Part shown: one piece after another, positions 1-64,000 of the stretch
Layout: each line of letters begins with the position of its first letter
Position numbering within the stretch: the first letter of the stretch is position 1
Virus record (IMG/VR): IMGVR_UViG_3300034071_001727
Location: 460 to 64,459 of that record
Reading direction: 5' to 3' (one strand)
Length of the DNA stretch: 64,000 bases
Source: a virus
Lineage: Duplodnaviria; Caudoviricetes
The notes under the pieces: model-generated
What the model was told of the DNA's origin: nothing
Seen by the model: only the letters and a program-made list of their open reading frames with translations
Database searches by the model: none
Position numbers and translations under genes: made by a program

Positions 1-133
1 CGCGCACCACTACGGGTACATCCGCGGCACCGAAGGCAAGGACGGCGATCACGTTGACGTCTTCCTCGGCCCCGACGCCGAGAACGCGGACCTGCCGGTG
101 TTCGTGGTCGACCAGGTGACGCAGGCCGGGCGC
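1..133. repeat. Terminal direct repeat, left copy (matches 63868-64000)
   Basis: Aligned by eye at offset 63867; mismatches at positions 1 and 34. Confidence 0.95.
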
Positions 134-3100
134 TTCGACGAGCACAAGGTCATGATGGGCTTCGCCGACGAGGCGGCTGCGCGCGAGGGCTATCTGGCCA
201 ACTACTCGCCGGGCTGGTCTGGCCTGGGCGACATCACGCAGATGGCGCTGGCGGACTTCAAGGTGTGGGTCATGGATCCAGCGCGGACCACCAAGCGCGC
301 GAGTCAGGCAGATTCTTTCGACGCCCGAGCCGCTTGGGAAGCAACGTCCAAGCCGGATCGCGCGCGAATGATCGACCGCTTTTTCGGTGAAGGACTGACC
401 GATGCAGGCGAACGCTACAGCGGTCGCACCTGGGAGCAGTTCAACGTGGGCGAACAAAGCACGCTTTCAGCTTTGCTGAAGGCTGCAGCCAATGCAGGCC
501 GCAGGGAGCCAGATGGCGCACAGCAAGAAGCTGCACCGGCCATCACGCGAGAACAGGAAGCAGCGCTCTACGAGTACCTGCGCGAACAGACCGAAGGCGA
601 CGCGCTGCGCTACCAGCTACTCGCCCAGAAGTTCCAGCGCGTTGCCGATGACCGGGCCAGCGAAGAAGACACACGGATCACCCTAGACTGGCTGCAGTCG
701 ATGGCCGAAGACGGCACAGAGAAGCAGCGACTGGCGGCGGAGGGCAAGGCCAAGGCTCAAGCTGACGCTGCAGAGAGTGAGCGCATTGCCGCGGAGCGAG
801 CGGCGGAGTCGCTGTCAGATCTTCGCGCAGGCAAAGCCGGCAATGAGCGCTATGCGCTGTTCCTGTCCACGCTGAGCCAGTCCGAGCGCGACGCCATCGA
901 AACGGTGGCCGGGTTCAACACGCGGTACATGGCATTTATCAGCGCTCGATCGGCTGAGTTCAAAGCGAAGGGACGCAGTGACAGCATCAATGACCAAGAT
1001 GCGTTCACGGCGCACATTCGAGCTTGGGTCGAGGGTCAGAAGCCCGCCGAAGTCAGCCCCAAGTCGACCAGCAAGACCCCCACCGTTGACCACCACATTG
1101 CCGTGATGGACGCAGTGCGCGACGGGACAGGCGATCTTGAGGCCTACCGGCAGAGCTTCGCCGCCCTCGCTGATGCACCGGAGGCGGTCAAGGCCGAGCT
1201 GGCCACGAAGACGAAGGACGAGCTGTTGAAGGCGGGCGGCCGGAACTTCTACGCGCGCTACAAGCCCGAAAAGAAAGACACGATCATCGCGGCGTTCTAC
1301 CGTGATCTTCTGGCCGAGTATGCGCTGGGCAAGTCTTATGGGCCGACCAGCTACTACATGACGCGCGGCGGCATGGCCGAGCACGAACGACTGAAAGCCG
1401 AGGCCCTGCGCGAGCTGGTAGCCGGGCAGACCGCCGAGACGCTGGCCGAGTACGCCGCAGAAGTGAAGGCCGCGCGCGCCGAATACAGCGAACGGTTGGC
1501 GGCGCGAAAGCAGGCGGTCACGGAGCCGAAGTCGCTCGACGACTTCCGGCAGGCCTTGAGCTTCCACATGGGGCAGGGCAAGACCCGCGACGAGGCGTTT
1601 CGCGAGCTGTCGCCCGAACAGCGCATCCGCTATGACGAGCTCGAAGCTGAGAGCACCCGCGAAGCGCGGGAAGCCCGCAAGCGTGAGGCGCGCACCAGCG
1701 TGCGGGCGGCCGGGCAGTCCACCAGCGGGCAAATCATCGAGACGAAGCACACCCGTGAGGGCTACGACCTGTTCGTGGTGCAGCTGTCCGACCGGCTGAG
1801 CCGCGAGGACTACCAGACCATGCTGGGGTCGGCCAAGCGCTTGGGCGGCTGGTACAGCAGCTTCCGCGGGCGCGGCGCCGTCTCCGGCTTTCAGTTCAAG
1901 GAGCGAGCCAGCGCCGAGGCCTTCGTGCAGCTGGCCGGCGGCGACACGCAGGCGGCGCAGGCACAGGCCGATCAGCGGCGTGATTCGTTCCAGGATGACC
2001 GCAGCCAGTCCGCCGTCGAGCGCTTGCGCGAAATGGCTGATCGCATCGAAGAGCGTGCAGACGATGCGCTGGGCGCCGATCGCAAAGTGAACACCGACCG
2101 CCGCGCTCGAATGGCGGCATCGGCAGAGCGGGCGGCGCAATCGGAGAAGGCACTGGCGCGCACCATGCGCAACATCGCTACTGCTATCGAAGCCGGCGAC
2201 GCCAAGTTTCTGGACGCGGTGCGGACGAAGACACAGGTAGAGCTGCTGGCCACCGAAGTCGGGTCGGCAAAGTACGAAGAGCTGCGCGCGAAGCACCCGA
2301 CCTACGCTGAGCAGGAGCGCCGCCGCGGTGAGCCGCCGACCGACGAGACGGCCGACTATGCGAAGTGGCCGACCTTCACCGCGTTCCGGTCGGACCTGGC
2401 CACGCTGGGGCGCCAGCTGTCTGACGTCGAAGGCACGAAGAAGCTGGGGCAGCAGATCCTCAGCGTCGCTGACGACGTGACCGATGCGTTCATCGACTTC
2501 GCCAAGGAAAACCCGCTCAACCTGGCCAAGCTGTCCACGATCGGCGTAGGCGACAAGGTGGCCGAGTTCGCCAACCGCGAGGCCGCAGAGCGCGCCATCC
2601 GTCGCAGCAAGCTGGTCGGAAAGGCCATCGTGCTGCCAATCAAGCGCGGCGTGAACCGCGTCATCATGAGCCCGAGCGAGGCCATGGCGCGCGGAGTCTG
2701 GCAAGGCGACGGCGACAAGCGCATCACACTGACCGGTGAGTTCGGCAGCAAGCTGGTCGAGACGATCGGCCGGCGAGCCAACGCGCAGAACCGGCTGTCT
2801 GTGCCTTGGCAGTTCGAAAGCGCCTACCAGAAGCGCAAGGCCCTGGCTCGCCTCGGCATCGAGACGCCCAGCGAGTTCCGCTCAGCGCTGCGTGAGTTCA
2901 TCCGCCTGCAGGAGCGCGCCACATCCAACCGTGTGCGCGAGCTTGAGCTGTCGATGGTCGGCCGCAAGAACGACGGGCTCGACTTCTTCCCGACGCCGCA
3001 GGGCGTGGCCGACCAGATGGTTGAGGCTGCAGAGATCACCCCCGACATGGCGGTGCTGGAACCCAGCGCAGGCATGGGGCACCTGGCCGACCGCATTCGC

Positions 3101-6100
3101 GCTGCTGGTGCTGAGCCGGACGTCATGGAGATCAGCCAAGAGCGCAGGCAGCTGCTGGAAGAGAAGGGCTATCACCTGGCTGAGGTCAACGACTTCTTGG
3201 CGCTGGAGCCGCGGAAGTTCTTCACGTTCGGCGACGTGTTCCGAGCGCCGGACGGCACTGAGGGCATCATGCGCGGGCAGGGCGGCATGGGTAGCCAGCG
3301 CATCCGCCTGGAAGACGAAGAAGGCCGCGGGCTTGGCACATTCGATCGCTCAGATCTTGAGGGCGTGCGCCATCGCGGCGTTGCCAGCGGCTACGACCGC
3401 ATCATCATGAACCCGCCTTTCAGCAAGCGCCGCGATGCGGAGCATGTGCGGCACGCCTACGAACTGCTGCGGCCGGGCGGCCGTATCGTCGCGATCATGG
3501 GCGAAGGCGTGTTCTTCGGCTCAGACGCGAAGGCTCAGGAGTTCCGCGAGTGGCTGGAGTCGGTCGGCGGCACGAGCGAAAAGCTCGAGGCCGGCAGCTT
3601 CATGGACGCATCGCTGCCCGTGAACACCGGCGTCAATGCGCGGATGGTGGTCATCGACAAGGCCGATCCGAACGCTGCAGCGGCGCCTGACGAGCAGGCA
3701 GCAGATCCCGAAGCAGACGGCCCGGCGCTGTTCTCGCTGCCGGACCCCGAGCCGCAGCCGGTGTTCTACTCGGCCGCTGCGCGCGCGATCGAGGAAGGCA
3801 AGGGCGCGCCCAAGAAGGGTGACGCAGCAGCCTGGAAGGGCTGGCTCGACGGCGCTGTGCGCCGCGGCGACATGAAGCAGAGCGAGCGCGATTGGCTGGA
3901 CATCGACGGCTGGCTTGATCGCCAGGAATCGAACTGGTCAGTTGTGGACAGCAGGGGGCGAGAGGTCGCCAGCTCCGATGACCGAGGCCGCGCGCTGGCA
4001 AACGCAAAGCGCAGGACGGAGAAAGGCGAGAAGCACGACATTCGCCCCATGGCCATCACGCGCGAGGCGCTGGCTGAGTTCGTGCGGGCGAATGAGGTTC
4101 GGGTCAGCGAGGTGGTGCTTGGCAACAAGGACAAGGCGGGCGAGTGGGAGCCGACCAAGGGCGGGTTCCGCCGCAGGATCGGCAACCGCTGGACTCACGT
4201 CTGGAATCCCGACAGCAAAGGCAATGTTTATGGTGCTGGACCGAGCGGGTTTCAGCGCAGGTTCGAGAGCGTGGACGAAGCCAAAGCGCACTTTGATTCG
4301 CTGGACATTGCTTCGTCAACGAAGCCGGTTAAGTTCGCCAAGCACCGCACCCCCGGCGGAGAGAACTACCGTGAGCTGCTGCTGATGCTTCCGAGCGAGC
4401 AGGTTTCGTTCAATCTTCAATGGGAACAGCAGACCGATGACATGCTCACGGCCGATCTCCCAAGCGGCCGTTTGGCGCTGATCGTCTACGACCGCCAAGC
4501 GCCCGAGAACGGGGCGACGCTCAATACCACCGACCAAGACGGCGAGGCCGGAACACCAGAGGTGCAGTATCCAAGCGTCGATGCGGCCAAAGACGCGGCG
4601 CGCGCCATGGTTGTATCCCGCAACGAGGATAAGCCTGGATACCGGTCAAGCCATTGGGACCAGCCCAACGTGCTCGCCCACATCCGCATGGACGAGCGCA
4701 CCGATGCCGAAGGCCGCCGCGTGCTGTTCGTGCAGGAGATTCAGAGCGATTGGCACCAGGCTGGGCGGAAGAAGGGATACAAGTCGCAATCGCTCCCGGC
4801 AGAGAACTTCGTCAAGAAGGTGGGCGACGAGTTCTTTGTATGGACCCGCGCAGTCGATCAACGGGAATGGACTCAGCCCGGCGCCACTGAGGCAGAGGCT
4901 GTAAGCAACTTCCTGTCCGACCAAGCTCGGGACACTCGCGTCCCAAACGCCCCCCTCAAGTCCACCGACGAATGGGCCATGCTCGCCTTCAAGCGCGCCG
5001 CTCGCTGGGCCGTGGACAACGGGTTCGACCGCATCGCCTGGGCGACCGGCGAGCAGAATGCCGAGCTGTTCGACCTGAGCAAGCGGATCAGTCGAGTCGA
5101 GTACACCGGCAACGGCACTCTGTTTGCCGATGACCTTCGTGGCAATCGCGTAATCAACGAGATTGTCAAAGAGGACAAGTTGCCGGACTACATCGGCAAG
5201 GAGGCCGCCGAAAAATTGCTCGCGCAAGAGCCAAAGGAAACCAGGAGTCCGACCGGGCTTCCGACGAAGCCTAGCCGGTTTCTTGAAGGCATCGACCTCA
5301 AGATCGGCGGCGAAGGTATGCGCGGCTTCTACGACAAGATCCTGCCGGCGGCCGTAGGCAAGTGGGCCAAGAAGTTCGGCGGCAAGGTCGGCTCTGCGGA
5401 GTTCATCGGCATCGAGGGTCCGAACGATGCCACCCGCGTGCATGCGATCGACATCACGCCGGCCATGGTCGATGCGATTGCGACAGGTCAGCCGCTGTTT
5501 TCGGGAATTCCCGGCCAGCCTGCGCGCGCGCTTGGCGTTGCGCCATCCCAGCTGCAGGCCGCTATCGCCAACGTCATCCGCGGCTGGAACGCTGACACCG
5601 CGCCGCGGGTGCGTGTGCTCGCCGACCCCGAGGGTCTGCCGGCGCGGGCGAAGCGTGATCCGCGCTACCGCATGGCGGAGGGCTTCTACGATCAGGGCAA
5701 CCGCACCGTCTACCTGATCGCGTCCAACCTGCCGACCGAACGCCGCGCCCTGCAGGTGCTGGCGCACGAGGCGGTGGGCCACTACGGCATGGAGGCGATC
5801 ACCGGGCCCGAGCTGTGGGCAGAGCTCGAGTCCGCTGTGGCGCGACTGGAGACGACCGCCACCGGCAAGGTGGGCGAGGCTTTGGCCAGCGCGCGCCGCC
5901 GCTACGCGGGCGCGGATCGAGCCACCTTCACGAAGGAGGCCATTGCGGTCCTGGCCGAGCGTGGAGTGCAGAACAGCATCGTCTCGCGTGTCGTGGCTTC
6001 GGTGCGCCGCTTCCTGCGCTCGCTGGGCTTCGACCTGCGCCTGTCGGAGTCGGACATCCTCGCCATGCTCCGCGACAGCGCTCGCTATCTCGAGCGCGGC

Positions 6101-9100
6101 CGACAGGTCGCGGCCGATCAGCCGGTGACGGGCGCCGCGTTCGCTCGCCCTGACCTGGACCCGAAGCGCCGCGTTCCCGTGATCGAAGCCAAGGCCAATG
6201 CCTACGGCCCGACCGGCGATGCTGAGCAGGTCCGTGCTGCGCGTGCAGCTGCCCGCGCGGATCTCAACACGCAACGCAAGGCGGGCACGAAATGGACCAA
6301 CGCCGAGAGCGGCATGCGCTTCCGACTGTCGAGCGACGGCATCGGCGAGCTGCTGTCCTGGACGGCTGACCCGTCAAAGCTGGACATGCTGGCCGCCCTG
6401 CAGCAGATCACCGAGCAGGGCATCGTCGCGCGCGTGGAATCAAGCCGAGTGGCGTCGCGTCAGGCTGGGCAGCCAGCGCAGGCGCAGACCTGGGCGACGC
6501 TCTATGCGCCGGTGAAGGTAGGGGGGAAGCTCAAGATCGCGCGCATGGTGGCGAAGGACGCCGGCGGCGGGGCTTTCGTCTACGACCTGCAACACTCGAC
6601 GGTGTTGGACCCCACGGATGCCGCCAGCGATTTGCCTGCTACCGAATCAGGTTCTACCGGCGGCCCCGCAGGGCGAGCGATGACGGTATCCCAGCTGCGC
6701 GCCATGGTCAACGCTGACGCGCGCGAGGCTTGGAACTGGTCGATGCCGGCCGATCAGCTGCCGGGCCTCACGGTGCCTGAGCGCACCACGGCCGCGGGCG
6801 TGCTGCGCACGATGGCCGAGCAGGGCGGGCTGTTCCGCTACCCGCCCAGCCGCGCGGGCGACCTGGCCACGGTCTTCGAGGAAGTGACCGAGGGCACCGT
6901 GTCCGCCACCTACAAGGGCGAGACGCTGGCCAACTTCACCGAAGACCTGGAGGACATGGCCGAGGTCCAGAAGTGGGAGCTGCGCACGAAGGACGGCCGC
7001 CCGATGTTCGTGTACGTCGAGGTCGGCGGCGAGAACCGCATGTACGTGGATGCCTCGCCGGGCCGCAGCGGCGCCAGCATGGGCAGCGCGGTCTATGCCG
7101 CCCTGTTCCAGTACGCGCTGAATGACGGCAAGGTGCTGATCGGCGACCCGAACGGACTGAGCCCCGAGGCGCTGCTGCGCCGGACGGAACACATGCTGTC
7201 CGCTGCGCTCAAGCACGGCACGACCCGCATGATGGCGCCGCACCCGCGACAGGTCGACCCGACGCAAGGCCAGTGGGACAGCGGCCCGCAGGCCTGGGCG
7301 CACCCGCTGCGCTGGGAGCCCGGCAACGATGACGCCAACCTGCGCGCGCTGATCGAGACGACGCACCACAACGCGGCGGCCTTCCTGCGCGGTACTGACG
7401 GCGAGGGTGCCGTCTACAGCTTTCCCGCCAAGAAGTTCCTGACCCGGGACGGGCGCGAGCTCACGCAGGCGGACATCGCCCGTATCAGCAAGCAGGCCGG
7501 CAAGAGCTGGCGCGCGGGCCTGGCGGAACCGCTGGGCAACCCGAACGTGTCCCTGATCGGCCCCACCACCGTGGCGCGCTCGATCATCGCCGGGACGCTG
7601 CTGCGCGCCGAGGACAGTCAGCTCGCAAAGCCGCTGCTGGCCGACATGAACCGACGCGCGCAGGCGGGCGCCGCTGCGCCTGCCGAAGGCCTGTTCTACA
7701 GCCTGCGCGAACCGGAGGCCATGGGCGCGAACGCGGACCCGCGCGGCTTCCTGGCGCGTCTCGGCGCACTGATGAAGCCGGAGAACCTGACCCTGCGCGA
7801 GGCGATCGCCGCAAAGCTGCAGGACGTCACGCCGGCCGCGTTGGGCGCGCTGACCCTGCGCCACATCGCCGAGCTGGGCAAGAAGTACCTGCCGCAGCTG
7901 CCGAGCTACATCGACAACCTGAACCGGATGCAGACCGACCGGAACATCCTGCAGGAGGAAGGCAACGAGCTGGCCGAGAAGTGGCGCGGCATGCAGGTCA
8001 AGGACCGCCAGAGCGCCGAGCAGATGGCCGACCTGATGCACGACGCCACCATCGAGGGCGTGGATCCGGCCGAGGAATACCAGCCGCTGACCATGGTGAA
8101 CCTGAGCCGCGAGACGGTGCCGATCACCGATGCCGCGGTGCGCGACCACATCAAACGCAAGCGCGCGCAGTTCCGCAGCCGGCCGGGCGACGACAAGCGG
8201 GCCGAGTTCGAGGAAATCAAGGTGCTGCGCCAGAAGCTGGCCGCGGAGAAGCGCCGTCGCCGCACGTACCCGCAGCTGGTGGCCCGCTGGAATCAGCTGC
8301 CGGCGGAGTGGAAAGAGCTCTACCGCGAAGCGCGCGACATGTATTCGAAGCGCTCCGACCAGACGCTTGAGGCGCTGATGGCGCGCATCGGCGACCTGGA
8401 CATGGAAGACGAGCAGAAGCGGAAGACCGGCGCGCAGATTCGCCTGATGTTTGAGCAGGCGCGGCTGTCTGGCCCCTACTTCCCGCTGCAGCGCTTCGGC
8501 AGCTATTGGGTGGCCGCCAAGAATCCCGACACCGGCAAACGCGACTTCTTCATGTTCGAGTCGGCGGCGGATCAGCTGGCCGGCCAGCGTGACCTGCAGG
8601 TGCAGGGCTACACGGACTTGGCGTCGGGCAAGAAGCTCGAACAGGCGCGCGATGCGTTCGGCGCCGGCGAAGGCTTCATGACGGAAGTTCAGCGCAAGCT
8701 GCAAAAGGCGCGCGTGCCGCCAGAACTGCAGGATGAAATCTGGCAGCTGTACCTGCACACGCTGCCGGACCTGAGCCAGCGAAAGCACATGATCCACCGC
8801 AAGAAGGTGGCCGGCTACAACCCGGACGCCCTGCGCGCCTTCGCGGCCAACGCCAACCACGGCGCCTATCAGGTCGCGCGCCTGCGCTACGGCCACAAAA
8901 TGCAGCGGCTGGTCATGCAGGCGAAGACCTGGGCGGACTCGAGCGCGAAGACCGATCAGGGCAACCAAGCGAGCATCTACTACAACGAGCTGGTGAAGCG
9001 GCACGATTGGGTCATGAACCCCAGCGACAGCGCGCTGGTGAACAAGATCAGCGGGCTGGGCTTTGCGTGGTATCTGGGCGTGACCCCGGGCGCGGCGATG

Positions 9101-10549
9101 GTGAACCTGACGCAGACCGCCATCGTGGCCGGGCCCGTGCTCGCCAGCCGCTTCGGTGCGGCGAAGTCGATGAACGCCCTGATGAAGGGCATGCGCGACT
9201 CGATCCGCACCGGGGGCAACATCGAGCGCACGCTTCGGGACGAAGAGCTGCGGGCCTACCAGGCCATGCGCGCATCGGGCGCGATCGACAAGACGCAGGC
9301 GCACAACCTGGCCGGCATCGCCGAAGTCGACAGCGCCCAATACAGCGACAGCTGGCACCGCGTCATGAAGGGGATCAGCTACCTGTTCCACAAAGCCGAA
9401 GTCGTGAACCGCGAGGCCACCGGCATGGCCGCGTACCGGCTGGGCCGAGAGCAGGGCATGAGCTTCGATGCGGCCGTGCAGTACGCTGAGGACATCATCT
9501 GGGAGTCGCACTTCGACTACTCGAACGCGAACCGCGCGCGCTTCATGCAGTCCGGCGCGGCCAAGGTGCTGCTGATGTTCCGGCAGTACAGCCTGAGCAT
9601 GAGCTACTTCCTGTGGCGCAACTTCTACCAGACCTTCAAGGGGGAAAGCCCCAAGATCAAGCAGGAGGCGCGGCGCAAGCTGCTGGGCGTTCTGGGCATG
9701 ACGTCGGTGTTCTCCGGCGCGCTGGGCCTGCCCGCCATGAGCATGGTGTTCGGCGTCGCCAACGCCCTGGCCGATGCGCTGGGCGATGACGAGGATCCGC
9801 CGTTCGATGCCGAGGCCGAATTCCGCAACTTCCTGACCGACTTCATGGGCGCCGACGTCGCGCGGCTGATCGCCCGCGGCCCGGTGAACTTCGTCACCGG
9901 TGCGGACATCGCCAGCCGCGTCACGCTCGACGGGCTGTGGCTGCGCGAGCCGGAGCGCGAGCTCGAGGGCAAGGCGCTGGCCAACTACTGGCTGGAGCAG
10001 GCTGCGGGCCCGATCGGCGGCATCTTCGTCAACGCGATGCAGGGGCTCAGCCTGTTCCAGCAGGGCGAGGCTTGGCGCGGCGTGGAAGCGATGACCCCGA
10101 AGTTCGTGAAGGACGCGCTGCGCTCAATCCGCTACTCGACCGAAGGCGTGAACACGCTCCGCGGCGATGCGCTGATCCCCGACCTGTCGCCGGCACAGAC
10201 CGTGTTGCAGCTGGCTGGCCTGGCGCCGGCGCAGGTCAACGAGCGCTACGACGCGAACAACGCCATCAAGCGCTACGAGGAATCGATCCTGCGCAGCCGC
10301 CAGCGGCTGTTGGACGGCTTCGCCCTGGCTGTGCGGCTGGAAGACGACCGCATGCGCGACAGCACCCTGCAGCGCATCCGGGCGTTCAACGCGGCCAACC
10401 CGGAGATTCCCATCGACGCGAAGACCATCCGCACCAGCCTGCAGGCGCGCGCGCGCTACACGGAACGCAGCCTGGGCGGCGTCGCGGTCAATTCGAAGAT
10501 CGAAGCGCGGGCGCGCGAGCAGGGTAGGTTTGCCGAGGATCAGCCGTGA
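2..10549 (+). CDS. 3' part of giant virion-delivered polyvalent protein (InPase-like end, N6-adenine MTase, LPD/nuclease-like, zincin peptidase, possible GNAT-like, PLxRFG C-terminus)
   Basis: The frame is open from base 2 and continuous with 60158-64000 through the terminal overlap. Motifs: DVFLGP..VFVVDQ..FDEHKVMMGF; DFFPTP..VLEPSAGMG..IIMNPPF; VQEIQSDW; LAHEAVGH; YFPLQRFG. Confidence 0.85.
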   Translation, partial: AHHYGYIRGTEGKDGDHVDVFLGPDAENADLPVFVVDQVTQAGRFDEHKVMMGFADEAAAREGYLANYSPGWSGLGDITQMALADFKVWVMDPARTTKRASQADSFDARAAWEATSKPDRARMIDRFFGEGLTDAGERYSGRTWEQFNVGEQSTLSALLKAAANAGRREPDGAQQEAAPAITREQEAALYEYLREQTEGDALRYQLLAQKFQRVADDRASEEDTRITLDWLQSMAEDGTEKQRLAAEGKAKAQADAAESERIAAERAAESLSDLRAGKAGNERYALFLSTLSQSERDAIETVAGFNTRYMAFISARSAEFKAKGRSDSINDQDAFTAHIRAWVEGQKPAEVSPKSTSKTPTVDHHIAVMDAVRDGTGDLEAYRQSFAALADAPEAVKAELATKTKDELLKAGGRNFYARYKPEKKDTIIAAFYRDLLAEYALGKSYGPTSYYMTRGGMAEHERLKAEALRELVAGQTAETLAEYAAEVKAARAEYSERLAARKQAVTEPKSLDDFRQALSFHMGQGKTRDEAFRELSPEQRIRYDELEAESTREAREARKREARTSVRAAGQSTSGQIIETKHTREGYDLFVVQLSDRLSREDYQTMLGSAKRLGGWYSSFRGRGAVSGFQFKERASAEAFVQLAGGDTQAAQAQADQRRDSFQDDRSQSAVERLREMADRIEERADDALGADRKVNTDRRARMAASAERAAQSEKALARTMRNIATAIEAGDAKFLDAVRTKTQVELLATEVGSAKYEELRAKHPTYAEQERRRGEPPTDETADYAKWPTFTAFRSDLATLGRQLSDVEGTKKLGQQILSVADDVTDAFIDFAKENPLNLAKLSTIGVGDKVAEFANREAAERAIRRSKLVGKAIVLPIKRGVNRVIMSPSEAMARGVWQGDGDKRITLTGEFGSKLVETIGRRANAQNRLSVPWQFESAYQKRKALARLGIETPSEFRSALREFIRLQERATSNRVRELELSMVGRKNDGLDFFPTPQGVADQMVEAAEITPDMAVLEPSAGMGHLADRIRAAGAEPDVMEISQERRQLLEEKGYHLAEVNDFLALEPRKFFTFGDVFRAPDGTEGIMRGQGGMGSQRIRLEDEEGRGLGTFDRSDLEGVRHRGVASGYDRIIMNPPFSKRRDAEHVRHAYELLRPGGRIVAIMGEGVFFGSDAKAQEFREWLESVGGTSEKLEAGSFMDASLPVNTGVNARMVVIDKADPNAAAAPDEQAADPEADGPALFSLPDPEPQPVFYSAAARAIEEGKGAPKKGDAAAWKGWLDGAVRRGDMKQSERDWLDIDGWLDRQESNWSVVDSRGREVASSDDRGRALANAKRRTEKGEKHDIRPMAITREALAEFVRANEVRVSEVVLGNKDKAGEWEPTKGGFRRRIGNRWTHVWNPDSKGNVYGAGPSGFQRRFESVDEAKAHFDSLDIASSTKPVKFAKHRTPGGENYRELLLMLPSEQVSFNLQWEQQTDDMLTADLPSGRLALIVYDRQAPENGATLNTTDQDGEAGTPEVQYPSVDAAKDAARAMVVSRNEDKPGYRSSHWDQPNVLAHIRMDERTDAEGRRVLFVQEIQSDWHQAGRKKGYKSQSLPAENFVKKVGDEFFVWTRAVDQREWTQPGATEAEAVSNFLSDQARDTRVPNAPLKSTDEWAMLAFKRAARWAVDNGFDRIAWATGEQNAELFDLSKRISRVEYTGNGTLFADDLRGNRVINEIVKEDKLPDYIGKEAAEKLLAQEPKETRSPTGLPTKPSRFLEGIDLKIGGEGMRGFYDKILPAAVGKWAKKFGGKVGSAEFIGIEGPNDATRVHAIDITPAMVDAIATGQPLFSGIPGQPARALGVAPSQLQAAIANVIRGWNADTAPRVRVLADPEGLPARAKRDPRYRMAEGFYDQGNRTVYLIASNLPTERRALQVLAHEAVGHYGMEAITGPELWAELESAVARLETTATGKVGEALASARRRYAGADRATFTKEAIAVLAERGVQNSIVSRVVASVRRFLRSLGFDLRLSESDILAMLRDSARYLERGRQVAADQPVTGAAFARPDLDPKRRVPVIEAKANAYGPTGDAEQVRAARAAARADLNTQRKAGTKWTNAESGMRFRLSSDGIGELLSWTADPSKLDMLAALQQITEQGIVARVESSRVASRQAGQPAQAQTWATLYAPVKVGGKLKIARMVAKDAGGGAFVYDLQHSTVLDPTDAASDLPATESGSTGGPAGRAMTVSQLRAMVNADAREAWNWSMPADQLPGLTVPERTTAAGVLRTMAEQGGLFRYPPSRAGDLATVFEEVTEGTVSATYKGETLANFTEDLEDMAEVQKWELRTKDGRPMFVYVEVGGENRMYVDASPGRSGASMGSAVYAALFQYALNDGKVLIGDPNGLSPEALLRRTEHMLSAALKHGTTRMMAPHPRQVDPTQGQWDSGPQAWAHPLRWEPGNDDANLRALIETTHHNAAAFLRGTDGEGAVYSFPAKKFLTRDGRELTQADIARISKQAGKSWRAGLAEPLGNPNVSLIGPTTVARSIIAGTLLRAEDSQLAKPLLADMNRRAQAGAAAPAEGLFYSLREPEAMGANADPRGFLARLGALMKPENLTLREAIAAKLQDVTPAALGALTLRHIAELGKKYLPQLPSYIDNLNRMQTDRNILQEEGNELAEKWRGMQVKDRQSAEQMADLMHDATIEGVDPAEEYQPLTMVNLSRETVPITDAAVRDHIKRKRAQFRSRPGDDKRAEFEEIKVLRQKLAAEKRRRRTYPQLVARWNQLPAEWKELYREARDMYSKRSDQTLEALMARIGDLDMEDEQKRKTGAQIRLMFEQARLSGPYFPLQRFGSYWVAAKNPDTGKRDFFMFESAADQLAGQRDLQVQGYTDLASGKKLEQARDAFGAGEGFMTEVQRKLQKARVPPELQDEIWQLYLHTLPDLSQRKHMIHRKKVAGYNPDALRAFAANANHGAYQVARLRYGHKMQRLVMQAKTWADSSAKTDQGNQASIYYNELVKRHDWVMNPSDSALVNKISGLGFAWYLGVTPGAAMVNLTQTAIVAGPVLASRFGAAKSMNALMKGMRDSIRTGGNIERTLRDEELRAYQAMRASGAIDKTQAHNLAGIAEVDSAQYSDSWHRVMKGISYLFHKAEVVNREATGMAAYRLGREQGMSFDAAVQYAEDIIWESHFDYSNANRARFMQSGAAKVLLMFRQYSLSMSYFLWRNFYQTFKGESPKIKQEARRKLLGVLGMTSVFSGALGLPAMSMVFGVANALADALGDDEDPPFDAEAEFRNFLTDFMGADVARLIARGPVNFVTGADIASRVTLDGLWLREPERELEGKALANYWLEQAAGPIGGIFVNAMQGLSLFQQGEAWRGVEAMTPKFVKDALRSIRYSTEGVNTLRGDALIPDLSPAQTVLQLAGLAPAQVNERYDANNAIKRYEESILRSRQRLLDGFALAVRLEDDRMRDSTLQRIRAFNAANPEIPIDAKTIRTSLQARARYTERSLGGVAVNSKIEARAREQGRFAEDQP

Positions 10550-34998: not shown

Positions 34999-35610
34999 GT
35001 GTCGACGCGAAAGAAGCCGCCCGCCAAGGGACGCAAAGCGCAGTCCGTCCGCAACGGGCTGAATCTCAAGCAAGCCGCGTTCGTTGCTGCCTACACGACC
35101 AACGGCGGGGACGGGAAGAGGGCAGCGCTCGCAGCCGGGTACGGTGAGAAGGGCGCAGAACAACAGGCTTCCAGGCTACTGACCATGCCGCGCGTGCGCG
35201 CCGAGGTGCAGCGCATCGCCGCAGCAGGCGCTGAGCGCGCTGAAATCACGGTCGAGCGGATCATGGACGAGCTCGCCCTGGGCGGGTTCGCGGACATCAC
35301 CGACTTTGTGGAGTGGGATGCACGCGGCGTGCGGCTCAAGCCGTCAAGGAAGCTCGATGCAGCCAAGCGACGCGCCATCGTCGAGGTCGCCGAGACGATG
35401 AACGGCGTCAAGATCAAGCTGATGAACAAGCTCGGGGCGCTGGAGCGCATGGGCCAGCAGATCGGCATGTTCAAGCACCAGGTCGAGCTGCCGAGCGATC
35501 CAGCGACAGGCCAGCCGCTGGGACTGATCCTCGTGCCGTACAAGGCCCCGGCCCCGACAGCACCACCGCCTGCGCCGCCTGAGCCCGCCGGCGGCGACGA
35601 TGGGGATTGA
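34999..35610 (+). CDS. terS: Terminase small subunit
   Basis: LNLKQAAFV..RAALAAGY..QASRLL..IKL.NKLGALE. Confidence 0.9.
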   Translation: MSTRKKPPAKGRKAQSVRNGLNLKQAAFVAAYTTNGGDGKRAALAAGYGEKGAEQQASRLLTMPRVRAEVQRIAAAGAERAEITVERIMDELALGGFADITDFVEWDARGVRLKPSRKLDAAKRRAIVEVAETMNGVKIKLMNKLGALERMGQQIGMFKHQVELPSDPATGQPLGLILVPYKAPAPTAPPPAPPEPAGGDDGD

Positions 35611-37048
35611 GGGAGCAGCACGGCCCCCGATCATCTGGGAGCCCAACCCGAAGCAGCTCGACTTTCTGGCGAGCGACGACTTTGAAGTGCTGTTCGGTGG
35701 GGCCGCAGGCGGCGGCAAAAGCGACGCCCTGCTGGTCGACGCGATGGGCGGGCACTGCGGCGGCGTCCAGAACAAGGCATGGCGCGCCATCATCTTCCGG
35801 CGCACGTTCCCCGAGCTCCAAGACCTGATCGACCGCAGCCAAGAGCTGTACCCGCTCGCGGTTCCAGGCGCGAAATACAACAAGGTCGAGCACGTTTGGG
35901 TGTTCCCCAGCGGCGCGAAGATCTACCTCGGCCACCTGCAGCACGACGCCGACCGGTTCAAGTACCGCGGGCGCAACTTCAACTACATCGCGTTCGACGA
36001 GCTCACGCTCTGGGCAACGTCGAAATGCTGGGAATACCTGCGCTCACGCAACCGAACGCAGGACCGATCGCTGCCGTGCTACATGAGGGCAACGACCAAC
36101 CCGGACGGACCCGGGCAGAAGTGGGTCATGGACTGGTGGGGGATCAGCGAGGACGGCAAGGGCACCCGCCTGACCCGCCTGATCCTGACCGAGGAGTTCG
36201 ACGAAGAGAAACAGGACTGGATCGAGGTCGAGCGCGAGCGCGCGCGCACCTTCATCCCCGCCAAGCTGGCCGACAACAAACACCTTCGCGGCACCGGCTA
36301 CCGCGAAACCCTCATGGACATGCCGCCCGAGCAGCGAGACGCGCTGCTGTACGGGCTGTGGCGTGGCAACGCGGTCGAGGGCGCGTACTACCAAGCGCAA
36401 ATGAGCAAGGTGCGCGCCGAGAACCGCATCACGCGCGTGCCCTGGCTGGTCGACGTGCCCGTCAACACGTTCTGGGATCTTGGCTTCAACGACACCACCG
36501 CAATCTGGTTCCACCAGTTCGCGGCCATGGCGCATCGGTTCCCGCTCGCCTACGAAAACAGCGGCGAGACGCTGGCGCACTTCGCGAACTACCTGCAGCA
36601 GGTCGGCAAGGACAACGGCATCGTCTACGGCACGCACTACCTGCCGCACGACGCGGACAACCACAGCCTGCAGACCGGCAAGACCGCCAAGCAGATCCTG
36701 CAGGAGCTGTTGCCCGGGCATAGGTTCGAGGTTCTTCCACGCACGCCCAACGTGGTGCTGGGCATCCAGCAGACGCGCGCCGCGTTCCCCCACGTGTGGC
36801 TCGATCGAGAGGGCTGCAGCGACGGCATCGCCGCGCTGGACGCCTACCGCAAGAGATGGAACCGCCGCGTCGAGGCTTGGATGGACGAGCCCGAGCATGA
36901 CCGGTTCAGCAACTACGCCGACGGGTTCCGCCAGTTCGGTGAGGGCTACTTCCCTCGCCACCGGCACCGCACGACCGTCACCGACGAAGCCAAAGAAGGC
37001 CGCCCGCGCCGCAAGCGCAGTGGCAAGGGCAATTGGAGAGCCGCGTGA
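35600..37048 (+). CDS. terL: Terminase large subunit
   Basis: FGGAAGGGKS, IAFDE, TTNPDG, WDLG..D, LPHD, H..SNYAD. Confidence 0.95.
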   Translation: MGIEGAARPPIIWEPNPKQLDFLASDDFEVLFGGAAGGGKSDALLVDAMGGHCGGVQNKAWRAIIFRRTFPELQDLIDRSQELYPLAVPGAKYNKVEHVWVFPSGAKIYLGHLQHDADRFKYRGRNFNYIAFDELTLWATSKCWEYLRSRNRTQDRSLPCYMRATTNPDGPGQKWVMDWWGISEDGKGTRLTRLILTEEFDEEKQDWIEVERERARTFIPAKLADNKHLRGTGYRETLMDMPPEQRDALLYGLWRGNAVEGAYYQAQMSKVRAENRITRVPWLVDVPVNTFWDLGFNDTTAIWFHQFAAMAHRFPLAYENSGETLAHFANYLQQVGKDNGIVYGTHYLPHDADNHSLQTGKTAKQILQELLPGHRFEVLPRTPNVVLGIQQTRAAFPHVWLDREGCSDGIAALDAYRKRWNRRVEAWMDEPEHDRFSNYADGFRQFGEGYFPRHRHRTTVTDEAKEGRPRRKRSGKGNWRAA

Positions 37049-60157: not shown

Positions 60158-63100
60158 ATGGCGATCGATCCGAACACGCAGCGGCCGAAGCCGCGCACGC
60201 TCTCCGACTTCGCCCCGCCTGCGCTGCAAGGACCGCTCGCGCCCCAAGCACCGAAGAAGCGCACCGGCGGCGAGATCCTGGCCGACAGCGCGCGTGGTGT
60301 CGCACAAGGCGCGCAGTCGCTGTCGACAGGGCTCGCGCAGGTGCCCAACCTGCTGACCGGCGGGGCGCTCGATCAGTACGTCGTCCGGCCCGCTCAGCGG
60401 ACGCTGGACAAGGCGCTTGGCGGGCCGGGGCAGGACTACGGCATCGCAGGCGCCAGCGGTCGCATGAGCGAAGGCCTGTCGTCAGGGCTGAGCCCCGTGC
60501 TCAAGGCCGAACAGCAGAAGCTGCAGGACGCCGATGGCTGGCTGGCCAAGGCGGGCACCGTGGCGACCAACCCGACCTTGCTGGGGCAGTTCGCCGCCGA
60601 GCAGGTGCCGATGCTGGCCACGCTGGGCACAGGCGCTGCGGGCACGGCCTCGGCGAAGGGTGCGCAGGCAATCGCGCAGGGCGCCACGCCGGCAGTCGCG
60701 CAGCAGGTCGGCAAGAAGGCGGCAGAGCGCGCGCTGATCGGTGCCAACACCGCCATGGGCGCGGGCTTCGCAGGCACTGGCGCGCAGCAGGACGCCATGA
60801 GCCAGCCGCAAGAGGTCTGGGACGCAAACCCCGAGTATCAGGCGCTGGTGCGGGCGGGCACGGCCCCCGACCAGGCAAAGCAGCAGCTCGCGTTGCGCGC
60901 CGGTCAGATCGCCGGCGCCATCGCCGCGCCGATCAGTGGCGCCGCCGGCGCGATCACCGCACCGCTGGAAGCATCGATCTTCACCCGCACGCTGGGCGCC
61001 GGCGTGCCGGCCCTGCTGTCGAAGCAAGGCGCGGGCATCGTTGCCCGAGGCATCGGCAAAGAGGCAGCGGAAGAGGCGATTCAGGAAGGCGGCGAGCAGT
61101 TCGGGCAGAACGTCGGCATCCAGCAGGCGGTGGACCCCACGCGCGCGCTGTCGCAGGACGTGGCCGACAATGCCGCGATCGGTGGCGTGCTGGGCGGCGT
61201 GCTGGGCGGCGGCCTGACCGCTGGCGGTCTGGCGCTCTCGCGCGATCCGCTGCGCGATGTTCCGCCCCTGCCCGGGGCACAGCCGGGACCGCAGCAAGGC
61301 CAGCCCCCGCGGCCTGCCGCGCCGCGCCCGCCGTCGCCCGCCGAGCAGGAGCAGCAGCTGCGCACCGCCGTGGCCATGGCGCAGACGCCCGAGCAGGCTG
61401 CAGCCGCAGGGCAGGCCCTGGCCGGCTTCCTGGAGCAGCAGGGCCGTCTGCTGGAGCCGCCGCAGACCATCGTGGGCGACTCGCAGGGCAATCTGCAGCC
61501 CAACGCACCGACACCGCCGCAGCTGTTCGATGCGCCGCGCATCCGCCTGGGCAGCGTGCCCGGTGGCGTGGGCTCTGTGCAGCAGGCGCCCCGAGGCGTG
61601 CCGGCGCAGCCGCGCGTGCCGTTTCCCGATGCCGCGCCGGGCACCCTGCAGGATGCGGTCAACGCGATCACCGAGGCGCAGCCGGAAGCCGCGGCACCTG
61701 CTGCCGTTGAGCCGCCCCAACTGCGCCCTGGCGAAACCATGGACCCCGAGACGGGCGAGGTCAAACCGCGCGAAGTGTCGGCCGCGCAACAGCAGCAGAT
61801 GGACCTACAGGCCGCGCTGGCGGCCAGCCCGACCCCTGACCTACTGACCCCGGCCGGCAAGCGCGGGAAGGAGCGACGCCGTGACAAGAAAGACCCCAAA
61901 GCCGCGGGGATGGCTGGCCCGCGAACATTGGAACAACCTGTCGTTGCGGCGGAAGGTGCAGCAGAAATCGGGCGGACTCCCGCCAATCCGATGGGTGAAG
62001 CCGACGCCGGAACTGTTGAGCTCGCTGAAAGGGATTCGGTACGTCGAGCTGCCGATTCTGCTGGTGCAGACCCCGATCAAACCGCGTCGTTCGGCGACGC
62101 CTCCGATCCCATTCGATCCCGAAGCACTGGCGACGCAACTCGCGTGTCCGGACCTTCTGTCGCCGGAGTTTCTGGTTTTGGCGCGACGCCCGCGACGCCC
62201 GACGAGGCAGCTGATCCCGGTCGATCCGGACTCCCCGATGCTCGAAGTGGTGCCGTCGATGGCGAGCGTTCCGATCGAGCTACAGGGACGCAAGACGCTG
62301 GTAGTGGTTTCGACACCCAAGTAGCCCAGCAAACCCCCGACCCCGCCACGCAGGAGGGCCAGACCGATGGACGAGGAAGAGCTGCAGAGCCGCTGGCACA
62401 AGGCGGAGCGGATGGCTTGGAACCTGTCGGGGCAAGTGGCCAAGGAGCGACTGCTGCGCGTGATGGTGACGGTGAACCTGCAGTCGAAGCGCCCGCTGGC
62501 GCCGCTGCCGCCACCGCTGCAGCGCCTGGAGCCCCCGAAGTAGATGCCGCCGCGGCCGGCTTCGCCGCGAACACGACCGAAGGAGACACCGATGTACGGA
62601 CGAATCCCGAACAAGGGCGCAGCACCGGGCAAGGCACCGCCGAAGCCGTCGAAAGCACCGCCCAAGGGCAAGAAGTCGAAGGCGAGCAAGCACAGCAGCA
62701 GCTGACAGGCGAAGCGCTCACTGCAGAGCGCAAGCGCATTGGCCTTCCGCGAGTGATCCGGAAGGCCGATGCCGTCGCGGCCCTGCGCCGTGCCGGGATG
62801 AAGAAGGCAGAGGCAGAAACCGCGTTCCTCAAGCTGAATCAGAAGGGGCTCAGGGACGGCACCCGCATGGGTGACGACGTGGCCGCGCTGATTGCAGCGC
62901 GCACGCAGCCGGCGGCGTCGGCGCCGGCACCAGGGGAGGTGGTCGAAAGTGGTCCCGCATCCGGGCGAGCGCCTGTAGATCCGCCCGCCGCGGCCACCGA
63001 TGCAGCGGCGGGCGCACAGTCGCCCGCGAAGGACAAGGCCCTGCGCCGGATCGAGCGCGGCACCGCGTTCTTCGCGACACGCGATCGCGCCGACGAGTTC

Positions 63101-64000
63101 ATCGCCGCCGGCGGCATCGGCGACACGCACGAAGCTGTGCAGGCCAAGCCCGGCCGCTTCGACGTGCGAGCGAAGCAGGCCAGCGCTGAGCCCGCAGCAG
63201 CCGCGCCGGAGCCGCTGCCGAAGCGCGGCGAGGAAGACCGCAAGGCCATGGCCGAGCGCGGCATCAAGCCGGGCATGCGCGTGGCCTACGAAGGCAAGGA
63301 CGGCCGCGTCGAGGGCACCGTGCAGTCCGTGGACCGCAGCGGCACTGAGGCTGACGTCGATGGTGTGTATGTGCGTGGGCTGAAACTCGAGCCCGTGGCT
63401 GAGCAGGCAAGCCCCAACCGGCCTGAACAGATTGATGCCGGGTTTCAGGCCAATCGCGAAGCGATCGAGCGCGAGCGCTTCAAGAAAGGCGACCCGGTGG
63501 AGTTCACCGCCGCTGGGCCGTTCACCAACGCTGACGGCAGCGTTGACCAGCAGCGCACGCGGCGGGGCACGATCGAGAAGATCGACGCCGACCAGGGCAC
63601 CGTCAAGGTCATCGTGCCGGGCGCGCGCGGCATGGCCGACTACACAGTGGCGGCGCGCGAGCTGCGCCGCGCGGTTGAGCCCGACGCTTCCAAGGTAGAG
63701 ACTGCCGCCGCCGAAGCCGCGACCAGCCCGACCAACGACCTGCCGGCGCCGACCGAGGCGCAGAAGGACGCGGGCAACTACAAGAAGGGCGCGCTGAGCC
63801 TGCACGGCCTGCGGATCAGCATCGAGAACCCGGCCGGCACCCGCCGCCGACCCGAGTGGCCGCCGTTGGCGCACCACTACGGGTACATCCGCGGCACCGA
63901 GGGCAAGGACGGCGATCACGTTGACGTCTTCCTCGGCCCCGACGCCGAGAACGCGGACCTGCCGGTGTTCGTGGTCGACCAGGTGACGCAGGCCGGGCGC
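60158..64000 (+). CDS. 5' part of the giant polyvalent protein (runs off the window end and continues at base 2)
   Basis: AAGGA SD, ATG at 60158, no stop found in this frame. Contains EAAEEAIQEGGEQ/GGVLGG, two SH3-like modules and PT.AQK.AGNYKKG..IENP.G..HYGYI (InPase-like). Confidence 0.85.
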   Translation, partial: MAIDPNTQRPKPRTLSDFAPPALQGPLAPQAPKKRTGGEILADSARGVAQGAQSLSTGLAQVPNLLTGGALDQYVVRPAQRTLDKALGGPGQDYGIAGASGRMSEGLSSGLSPVLKAEQQKLQDADGWLAKAGTVATNPTLLGQFAAEQVPMLATLGTGAAGTASAKGAQAIAQGATPAVAQQVGKKAAERALIGANTAMGAGFAGTGAQQDAMSQPQEVWDANPEYQALVRAGTAPDQAKQQLALRAGQIAGAIAAPISGAAGAITAPLEASIFTRTLGAGVPALLSKQGAGIVARGIGKEAAEEAIQEGGEQFGQNVGIQQAVDPTRALSQDVADNAAIGGVLGGVLGGGLTAGGLALSRDPLRDVPPLPGAQPGPQQGQPPRPAAPRPPSPAEQEQQLRTAVAMAQTPEQAAAAGQALAGFLEQQGRLLEPPQTIVGDSQGNLQPNAPTPPQLFDAPRIRLGSVPGGVGSVQQAPRGVPAQPRVPFPDAAPGTLQDAVNAITEAQPEAAAPAAVEPPQLRPGETMDPETGEVKPREVSAAQQQQMDLQAALAASPTPDLLTPAGKRGKERRRDKKDPKAAGMAGPRTLEQPVVAAEGAAEIGRTPANPMGEADAGTVELAERDSVRRAADSAGADPDQTASFGDASDPIRSRSTGDATRVSGPSVAGVSGFGATPATPDEAADPGRSGLPDARSGAVDGERSDRATGTQDAGSGFDTQVAQQTPDPATQEGQTDGRGRAAEPLAQGGADGLEPVGASGQGATAARDGDGEPAVEAPAGAAAATAAAPGAPEVDAAAAGFAANTTEGDTDVRTNPEQGRSTGQGTAEAVESTAQGQEVEGEQAQQQLTGEALTAERKRIGLPRVIRKADAVAALRRAGMKKAEAETAFLKLNQKGLRDGTRMGDDVAALIAARTQPAASAPAPGEVVESGPASGRAPVDPPAAATDAAAGAQSPAKDKALRRIERGTAFFATRDRADEFIAAGGIGDTHEAVQAKPGRFDVRAKQASAEPAAAAPEPLPKRGEEDRKAMAERGIKPGMRVAYEGKDGRVEGTVQSVDRSGTEADVDGVYVRGLKLEPVAEQASPNRPEQIDAGFQANREAIERERFKKGDPVEFTAAGPFTNADGSVDQQRTRRGTIEKIDADQGTVKVIVPGARGMADYTVAARELRRAVEPDASKVETAAAEAATSPTNDLPAPTEAQKDAGNYKKGALSLHGLRISIENPAGTRRRPEWPPLAHHYGYIRGTEGKDGDHVDVFLGPDAENADLPVFVVDQVTQAGR
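61881..62324 (+). CDS. Candidate overprinted ORF n1 (+1 frame, 147 aa)
   Basis: AAGGAG 7 nt before the GTG; host-frame GC3 drops here. Confidence 0.4.
   Translation: MTRKTPKPRGWLAREHWNNLSLRRKVQQKSGGLPPIRWVKPTPELLSSLKGIRYVELPILLVQTPIKPRRSATPPIPFDPEALATQLACPDLLSPEFLVLARRPRRPTRQLIPVDPDSPMLEVVPSMASVPIELQGRKTLVVVSTPK
62367..62543 (+). CDS. Candidate overprinted ORF n2 (+1 frame, 58 aa)
   Basis: AGGAGG SD; phage-typical codons in the nested frame. Confidence 0.5.
   Translation: MDEEELQSRWHKAERMAWNLSGQVAKERLLRVMVTVNLQSKRPLAPLPPPLQRLEPPK
62592..62705 (+). CDS. Candidate overprinted ORF n3 (+1 frame, 37-aa Lys/Pro-rich peptide)
   Basis: AAGGAG 6 nt before the ATG. Confidence 0.4.
   Translation: MYGRIPNKGAAPGKAPPKPSKAPPKGKKSKASKHSSS
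63868..64000. repeat. Terminal direct repeat, right copy
   Basis: Matches 1-133 with 2 mismatches. Confidence 0.95.

Follow-up and report, generated by a model that had tools for sequence, protein, structure and literature searches.

The stretch of DNA analysed here (the window; 64,000 nucleotides) covers nearly the whole of a phage genome of 64,459 bp, present as a single contig with a GC content of 66.7%. On its plus strand, an open frame running from position 60158 to the end of the window (60158..64000) forms the 5′ part of a giant polyvalent virion-protein gene. Within this frame (frame 0), an acidic, low-complexity linker with codons resembling those of an off-frame extends over positions 61862..62705, and the same nucleotides contain a row of small open reading frames (ORFs) in the +1 frame. 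We regard this stretch as a dual-coding joint of the polyvalent gene, with translation of the +1 ORFs predicted, a reading that sequence comparisons render probable, if with reservations. ORF58 is the best-supported of the nested genes. It and the following ORF53 are probably real genes, since their +1 frame is under purifying selection, their starts and stops are conserved, their codons are gene-like and a distant protein homologue exists; for ORF147 the same status is plausible.

The host gene encodes a polyvalent protein as understood by Iyer et al. 2017 (PMC5512222), because LPD37, InPase, LPD39 and LPD3 occur in one giant polypeptide together with matches to phage families. The 4704-amino acid (aa) protein P0002, which is near-identical to the product of the 60158 frame, scored 166 bits for LPD37, 150 for InPase, 121 for LPD39 and 30.7 for LPD3 (Pfam cut-offs of about 27). 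In the window's part of the giant protein, InPase is located at residues 1200–1279, and the N-terminal 561 aa match the PHROG families 'virion RNA polymerase' and 'DarB-like antirestriction'. The linker comprises about 281 aa (about residues 569–849), is rich in A, G, D, T, E, P and R, and has an isoelectric point (pI) of 4.3 and a net charge of −22.

All three nested ORFs are complete, with their own start and stop codons, and are offset by +1 inside the 60158 frame on the plus strand. ORF147 (61881..62324; 147 aa) starts with GTG and ends with TAG. ORF58 (62367..62543; 58 aa) runs from ATG to TAG, and ORF53 (62544..62705; 53 aa) begins with the ATG straight after the ORF58 stop codon (TAGATG). 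A shorter form of ORF53, ORF37 (62592..62705; 37 aa), starts at an internal ATG at 62592. An earlier reading of the window, made from its letters without database searches (the sequence-only reading), had described three consecutive +1-frame ORFs at 61881–62324, 62367–62543 and 62592–62705, in agreement with the ORF listing, and a strong Shine–Dalgarno (SD) sequence before each. These SD sequences are present as claimed: AAGGAG at 61868..61873 with a 7-nt spacer to the GTG of ORF147, AGGAGG at 62352..62357 with a 9-nt spacer to the ATG of ORF58, and AAGGAG at 62580..62585 with a 6-nt spacer to the ATG at 62592. The third ORF does exist in the proposed 37-aa form, but it more likely starts at the conserved TAGATG junction and has 53 aa.

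The plus strand of the window contains nine AAGGAG/AGGAGG-plus-start sites, three of which fall within this 840-nt stretch; at least three of the others stand at plausible real starts (34999, 40968, 42143). When the linker's own codons were shuffled 3000 times, three or more SD-led +1 ORFs arose in 0.2% of the shuffles (P = 0.002). The SD-plus-start triple thus exceeds the chance expectation. The bases of the ORF147 SD sequence double as the frame-0 codons for 'GKE'. No sigma-70-like promoter was found, terminator-like sites numbered one versus a shuffle mean of 1.4, and an Rfam scan of 61000–63500 gave a single sub-threshold match of 17 bits. TAG ends two of the three nested ORFs in the window and all three in the related contig L012 (see below), as a result of the frame-0 codon pattern GTA-G. 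Among ten large plus-strand genes that were checked, nine end with TGA, one with TAA and none with TAG. No tRNA genes were found in the genome, and hence no suppressor tRNA for TAG stops.

Codon usage of the linker in both frames

To obtain a chance expectation, the frame-0 protein of the linker was held fixed and its codons were drawn 5000 times from the phage's own usage. Under this null, the +1 frame had three or fewer stops in 89% of the draws and an open run of at least 147 codons in 85%. Length and openness of the +1 ORFs therefore carry no evidential weight. Base composition behaves differently from the null. The GC content at third codon positions (GC3) of the host frame is 0.539 in the linker versus an expected 0.833 ± 0.022 (null minimum 0.745), more than 13 standard deviations below. 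By codon position, the host frame has a GC content of about 0.76/0.56/0.86 upstream and 0.75/0.69/0.50 at 61958–62258, and the latter segment read in +1 gives 0.69/0.50/0.80, the usual gene pattern of this genome. The switch of the host frame to A/T-ending codons, with phage-typical codons in the nested frame, had been noticed by the sequence-only reading and is borne out by these values.

A codon log-odds score led to the same picture. Real genes of the phage score 0.47 ± 0.17 bits per codon and their +1 off-frames −0.69 ± 0.13 (maximum −0.36). In the linker, frame 0 drops to between −0.2 and −0.38 while +1 climbs to about 0 to 0.17, and +1 is the best-scoring frame across 61838–62558; the frame-specific codon scan that had been suggested as a check thus shows a flip to +1. 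The score also flips to +1 in the two related contigs L012 and L001, their unique cassettes included. Among the individual ORFs, ORF58 reaches 0.57, which is in the range of real genes, and ORF37 0.26. The correlation with the codon usage of the genome is r = 0.51 for the +1 ORFs and r = 0.38 for the frame-0 linker, with controls of 0.85 in frame (minimum 0.61) and 0.25 off frame (maximum 0.49).

In the reverse test, with the +1 peptides of the window held fixed, frame 0 was open in 1.1% of the draws (P = 0.011); for L012 and L001, the same test gave P = 0.016 and P = 0.002. The host frame is kept open by selection, since it is open in the relatives, cassette swaps preserve it and its openness is improbable from the +1 peptides alone.

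Relatives and frame-specific substitutions

Three DNA sequences carry this linker: the window, the metagenome contig L012 (85% aa identity in the flanking domain) and the IMG/VR contig L001 (77% in the N-terminal module). L012 was the one match of a second metagenome scan (1 of 549), a first scan for relatives having given 0 of 593, and L001 was the sole match of a search with a 26-mer of the window. Two members of a protein collection, P0003 (4517 aa) and P0004 (4543 aa), have the conserved parts of the linker in common and are represented by protein only. The viral contigs L002–L004 (36–41% identity) contain giant ORFs with other linkers, in which GC3 dips are mild (0.51–0.65 versus about 0.72). 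Frame 0 runs uninterrupted through the linker in L001, L012 and P0002–P0004, and also in L002–L004. Searches of other kinds remained negative: blastn of 61500–63000 against GenBank phages found no match, the linker as query for homologous proteins of near length retrieved none, none of three pattern matches of ORF147 in viral contigs was confirmed, P0008 (see below) and the ORF58 alignment as queries against viral contigs returned only the L001 contig again, and the ORF58 alignment gave 0 of 10 in genome contigs. Six of seven stretches containing a 21-mer of the window (L006–L011) were dropped as chance matches, as they show no similarity beyond the 21 bases.

The sequence-only reading implied that +1 stops should be absent from homologues. 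ORF58 has the same ATG, length and TAG in all three DNA sequences, with 90% (L012) and 66% (L001) aa identity. The TAGATG junction is likewise kept in all three, and ORF53 is 84% and 71% identical to its counterparts in L012 and L001. Also kept in all three sequences is the AAGGAG-N7-GTG start region of ORF147, whose conserved parts are the N-terminal ~26 aa and the C-terminal ~23 aa, with a variable middle. In L012 these ends enclose a shorter middle, giving a version of 102 aa, and two called proteins of that type, P0005 and P0006, also have 102 aa. L001 contains a version of ~145 aa and an additional ORF of 68 aa.

The distribution of differences over codon positions changes between the N-terminal domain and the linker. 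Between the window and L012, differences at frame-0 positions 1/2/3 amount to 37/34/117 in the N-terminal domain and 9/2/4 in the ORF58 region; for the latter, the comparison of the window with L001 gives 18/15/12 and that of L012 with L001 21/15/9. Ratios of nonsynonymous to synonymous differences per site (pN/pS) were calculated by the Nei–Gojobori method for 62366–62668 and the three pairs of these sequences. They are 0.31/0.49/0.46 in the +1 frame and 1.30/1.06/1.29 in frame 0, and for ORF58 0.23–0.56 in +1 versus 1.12–1.73 in frame 0. In the N-terminal domain, by comparison, the ratio of nonsynonymous to synonymous substitution rates (dN/dS) is about 0.19–0.20 in frame 0 and about 2 in +1. 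Of the four other frames, three have a pN/pS above 1 over 62366–62668. The dual-frame check on homologues thus came out in favour of the +1 frame for ORF58 and ORF53 together (0.31–0.49 versus 1.06–1.30).

Each change was also counted once, against the majority state of the window, L012 and L001. In 62367–62668, the changes synonymous in +1 but not in frame 0 number 29 of 69 (19.7 expected, p = 0.011), and those synonymous in frame 0 but not in +1 number 17 (20.5 expected). The N-terminal domain shows the opposite: 153 of its 267 changes are synonymous only in frame 0 (75.2 expected) and 39 only in +1 (69.3 expected), while the domain after the linker has 11 +1-only and 29 frame-0-only synonymous changes among 59. 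Linker and N-terminal domain differ significantly in both classes (Fisher test, p = 1.5 × 10−6 for frame-0-synonymous and p = 2.5 × 10−6 for +1-synonymous changes). For ORF53 (62544–62668), 11 independent changes are +1-synonymous versus 7.2 expected. In the two conserved ends of ORF147, the window and L012 differ by 13 +1-synonymous changes versus 7.7 expected; its middle has no alignable relatives. Purifying selection on the +1 frame of ORF58 and ORF53 is real but modest.

A profile of the three ORF58 sequences was searched against 1.84 billion representative proteins and retrieved two. P0007 is identical to ORF58 of L001. P0008, a protein of 55 aa encoded on a 1,024-nt Logan contig from another metagenome, matches ORF58 with 51% identity across 45 aa (E = 1.2 × 10−6). 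Gene callers chose the +1 ORFs on four Logan contigs (P0005–P0008). All nested products are basic (pI 10.0–11.7): that of ORF147 is Pro/Leu/Arg-rich with a pI of 11.1, and that of ORF53 Lys/Pro-rich with a pI of 11.7. An AlphaFold2 model of the ORF58 product consists of one long helix (residues 3–39, mean predicted local distance difference test score (pLDDT) of 82) and a loose Pro-rich tail.

The middle of the linker (61957 to about 62196–62319) differs in each of L012, L001, P0003 and P0004. A search for sequencing runs listed 24, with no RNA data set among them. Contigs from four of these runs (X2, X3, X4, X6) are about 99% identical in conserved parts; they contributed cassette junctions and almost no substitutions to the selection test. 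In the X3 contig, 61957 is joined to 62196, with 127 nt replacing 238, and in the X4 contig to 62319, with 463 nt replacing 361. The exchanges alter the length by 111 and 102 nt, both divisible by three, and so preserve frame 0. The hypervariable cassette exchanged in relatives (61957..62319, plus strand) lies within both the linker and ORF147. With about 99% identity on both sides and unrelated in-frame cassettes within, 61957–62319 is a recombination hot spot. A sequencing or assembly frameshift as the cause of the layout was rejected, as the same layout occurs in independent assemblies (L001, L012 and the run contigs) and conserved stops are present in the +1 frame itself.

In L012 and L001, a second +1 ORF is present in another joint of the giant gene (L012 5264–5575, 104 aa; L001 9446–9757). 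It has a codon score of 0.39–0.56 and a pN/pS of 0.35 in +1 and 2.27 in frame 0, and its match to TnpV (PF14198) is sub-threshold (E = 0.0079, 16.6 bits versus a cut-off of 27). Within the part examined, the codon score of both contigs flips to +1 in these two joints only. By tblastn the TnpV-like ORF is absent from the window's genome, and the window's three ORFs had no TnpV match in Pfam at E ≤ 1.

Alternative explanations and proposed model

Several observations speak against translated +1 genes. Beyond the chance openness of the +1 frame, the selection test gives modest significance (p = 0.011 for the two ORFs combined, 0.056 when restricted to ORF58 and 0.073 when restricted to ORF53) and only three DNA sequences carry the linker. 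Divergence varies along the gene, and its low level in this region could partly be due to recent recombination. ORF147 and ORF53 have codon scores of only 0.06 and 0.07 bits per codon, and the r of 0.51 for the +1 ORFs falls between the in-frame minimum and the off-frame maximum. The AGGAGG of ORF58, present in the window and L012, is degraded to GAGAG in L001, and the AAGGAG-N6-ATG of ORF37, shared by the same two sequences, is weakened there. The middle of ORF147 is swapped for unrelated sequence in relatives and its product does not fold in an AlphaFold2 model (pLDDT of 36). None of the three nested ORFs has a match in Pfam (E ≤ 1) or PHROGs (E ≤ 0.1), and the ESM Atlas gave no usable match for ORF58 or ORF147. 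In addition, the antisense frame, i.e. the reverse complement of the frame-0 codons, has pN/pS values of 0.40/0.60/0.60 over 62366–62668; it shares its third positions with +1, and substitutions alone do not separate the two.

Much of this would be expected if the +1 ORFs were fossils or unexpressed by-products, that is, out-of-frame captured DNA or dead small genes whose conservation reflects recent recombination. The chance openness, the missing fold and family matches, the SD sequence of ORF58 lost in L001 and the modest significance from three sequences all fit, and the swapping of the middle cassette among near-identical relatives indicates that recombination is active. Nevertheless we consider this explanation unlikely. 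A fossil would not keep gaining mainly +1-synonymous changes (29 versus 19.7), frame-0 third positions are quiet (17 of 69 changes in the linker versus 169 of 267 in the N-terminal domain), and the ATG, TAG and TAGATG of ORF58 and ORF53 are kept in three of three sequences. The improbable SD-plus-start triple (P = 0.002) and the existence of the 51%-identical P0008 also argue against it. Rare codons between domains can aid domain folding, and the codon shift coincides exactly with an inter-domain joint. The linker might be a rare-codon segment without a second product, in which A/T-ending codons slow ribosomes or loosen mRNA or DNA structure and the +1 ORFs and their SD sequences are side effects of G/E/K-rich codons; GGA, GAG and AAG codons readily yield SD-like strings. 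This seems quite improbable, as codon shuffles seldom give three SD-led +1 ORFs (P = 0.002) and the preference for +1-synonymous changes, the conserved start and stop of ORF58 and P0008 would all remain unexplained. The distant L002–L004, moreover, have merely the mild GC3 dips given above.

If selection acted on the antisense frame, the +1 signal would be a shadow of the minus-strand ORF 63919..61841 (692 aa), as suggested by the coinciding third positions, its pN/pS values and its length. Its length carries little weight, because real genes of this phage often contain long ORFs in their −1 frame (35779–36723 inside 35600–37048, for example); all six frames are largely open around 62280–62693. 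The +1 pN/pS is lower in three of three pairs, and the linker brings no increase in the antisense codon score (−0.41 to 0.12 within it, about 0 elsewhere). The antisense product is Ser/Gly/Arg/Cys-rich there, the ORF extends over DNA plainly coding in frame 0, all identified neighbour genes are on the plus strand, and P0008 matches the +1 product. Selection on the antisense frame is thus very improbable. The same holds for a programmed frameshift, by which ribosomes would slip from frame 0 to +1 near 61850–61880 and stop at 62322, yielding a short form of the N-terminal module that ends in a different tail. L012 does have an open +1 frame of 322 codons, which reaches far upstream of the GTG; in the window, however, the +1 frame is closed by a stop 12 codons ahead of the GTG, and ORF58 and ORF53, behind conserved +1 stops and with their own starts, would not be explained.

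For the dual-coding joint, the following mechanism is proposed. Ribosomes in frame 0 would read straight through and produce an acidic low-complexity tether linking the N-terminal module to the remainder of the ~4,700-aa protein. Here, selection on frame 0 concerns openness only, not the amino-acid sequence. In +1, the ribosome-binding sites on the same late mRNA would allow independent initiation and hence synthesis of small basic proteins. The ORF58 product would be one long helix with a proline-rich tail, and ORF53/37 might be made by re-initiation at the TAGATG stop–start junction and/or from its own SD sequence, so that ORF58 and ORF53 may form a coupled pair. ORF147 is probably also made, as a protein with conserved ends and an exchangeable middle. 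On charge grounds alone, the nested products may be accessory proteins produced together with the giant one; their strong positive charge, set against the −22 of the tether or against nucleic acid, hints at binding or neutralising partners. Of the hidden mini-operon in a disordered linker that the sequence-only reading had proposed, ORF58 and ORF53 thus stand on selection, starts and stops, codons and P0008, and ORF147 remains plausible only. The roles it had suggested for the products, as inhibitors or chaperones of the injected enzyme domains, receive no specific support from these results.

That reading had also taken the ORFs as overprinted on the giant gene. Two frames do overlap, but the direction is probably the reverse. 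According to a criterion described in the Pavesi review (PMC8227390), the frame with the less genome-like codon usage is the younger one. By this measure (r = 0.38 versus 0.51, both values being intermediate), the frame-0 linker is more likely the younger reading, with the +1 ORFs as its older partners. The linker of the giant gene probably arose when translation came to run across small genes in their −1 frame; among the off-frames of this GC-rich genome, that is the one where stops are least likely.

More tentatively, the joints of phage polyvalent genes might be docks for small exchangeable genes: the giant gene would have grown across small genes that were already there, in their −1 frame, which makes the linker the younger part, and cassettes would be swapped in frame between related phages. 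We hold this extension to be doubtful. The exchanged cassettes would then be the ORF147 family with its fixed ends and variable middles, the ORF58–ORF53 pair and, in the relatives, the TnpV-like gene, and each giant protein would travel with a changing set of hidden partners from the same mRNA.

Nested phage genes as such are already known. In phage lambda, the small gene Rz1 lies complete, start codon included, in the +1 frame of Rz, on the same strand and wholly within the larger gene; it encodes a lipoprotein of the lysis cassette and is nested in a small gene with constrained sequence. The ORFs described here are also in +1, on the same strand and wholly inside a larger phage gene. Unlike Rz1, they occupy a flexible joint in a polyvalent gene for a ~4,700-aa protein, two or three in a row, with no lipobox and in a host frame without amino-acid constraint. 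Features of an Rz1-type o-spanin were not found: ORF58 and ORF53 lack Cys, the one Cys of ORF147 is far from the N-terminus, and the host gene is polyvalent. In Bacillus subtilis, a single very small out-of-frame ORF with a regulatory role, comS, lies inside srfAB, a non-ribosomal peptide synthetase gene of the bacterial chromosome. The present case resembles it in that a giant gene of many modules harbours very small out-of-frame ORFs, but differs in being a phage gene with two or three nested ORFs.

In hepatitis B virus, as described in the review cited above (PMC8227390), the tolerant spacer of the polymerase overlaps the preS/S gene in another frame, and a sliding codon-usage analysis led to the proposal that a short gene once lay between two parts of the polymerase gene. 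The spacer of a multi-domain protein is thus dual-read in both cases, and a similar codon-usage analysis was used here. In contrast to that animal virus, with its 3-kb genome and an envelope protein as partner, the present case concerns a 64-kb tailed phage and small basic proteins. Among the polyvalent proteins described by Iyer et al. 2017 (PMC5512222, main text), the host gene is a member by virtue of LPD37, LPD39, LPD3 and InPase beside virion genes. In that main text the word 'overlapping' occurs 0 times and 'reading frame' comes up in one passage, which deals with cassettes next to each other instead of nested frames. Full-text literature searches and this main text yielded no description of nested genes in the joints of polyvalent proteins.

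Gene finders forbid long same-strand overlaps, so that such proteins are missing from phage annotations and protein databases. If our interpretation is true, polyvalent virion and host-takeover genes hold unannotated small proteins, the expression of which is tied to the giant protein, and large multi-domain genes can arise by read-through of small genes. A search signature would then be a collapse of GC3 in the host frame combined with synonymous substitutions that flip to another frame.

Genome context and contig ends

Upstream of 60158, genes for terminase, portal, major head and virion proteins were identified, all on the plus strand. The contig ends overlap, imperfectly, and the giant gene crosses the contig junction and continues in window 2..10549. 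Certain parts of the giant protein (KPGMRVAYEGKDG..., InPase start) are encoded both at window positions 63300–64000 and at genome bases 1–600 (window 2–140), and plain end-to-end joining of the contig is out of frame. The repeated contig-end parts flank two different middle segments, of which P0002 has one version and L012 the other. These repeats represent either two population variants assembled across a circular junction or a real internal repeat.

Near their C-termini, P0003 and P0004 contain an insertion of roughly 370 aa that has no Pfam match at E ≤ 0.001. It starts with Cys, ends with ...GN before Ser and sits where P0002 reads through, between FDY and SNANRARF, so that it is intein-like by position.

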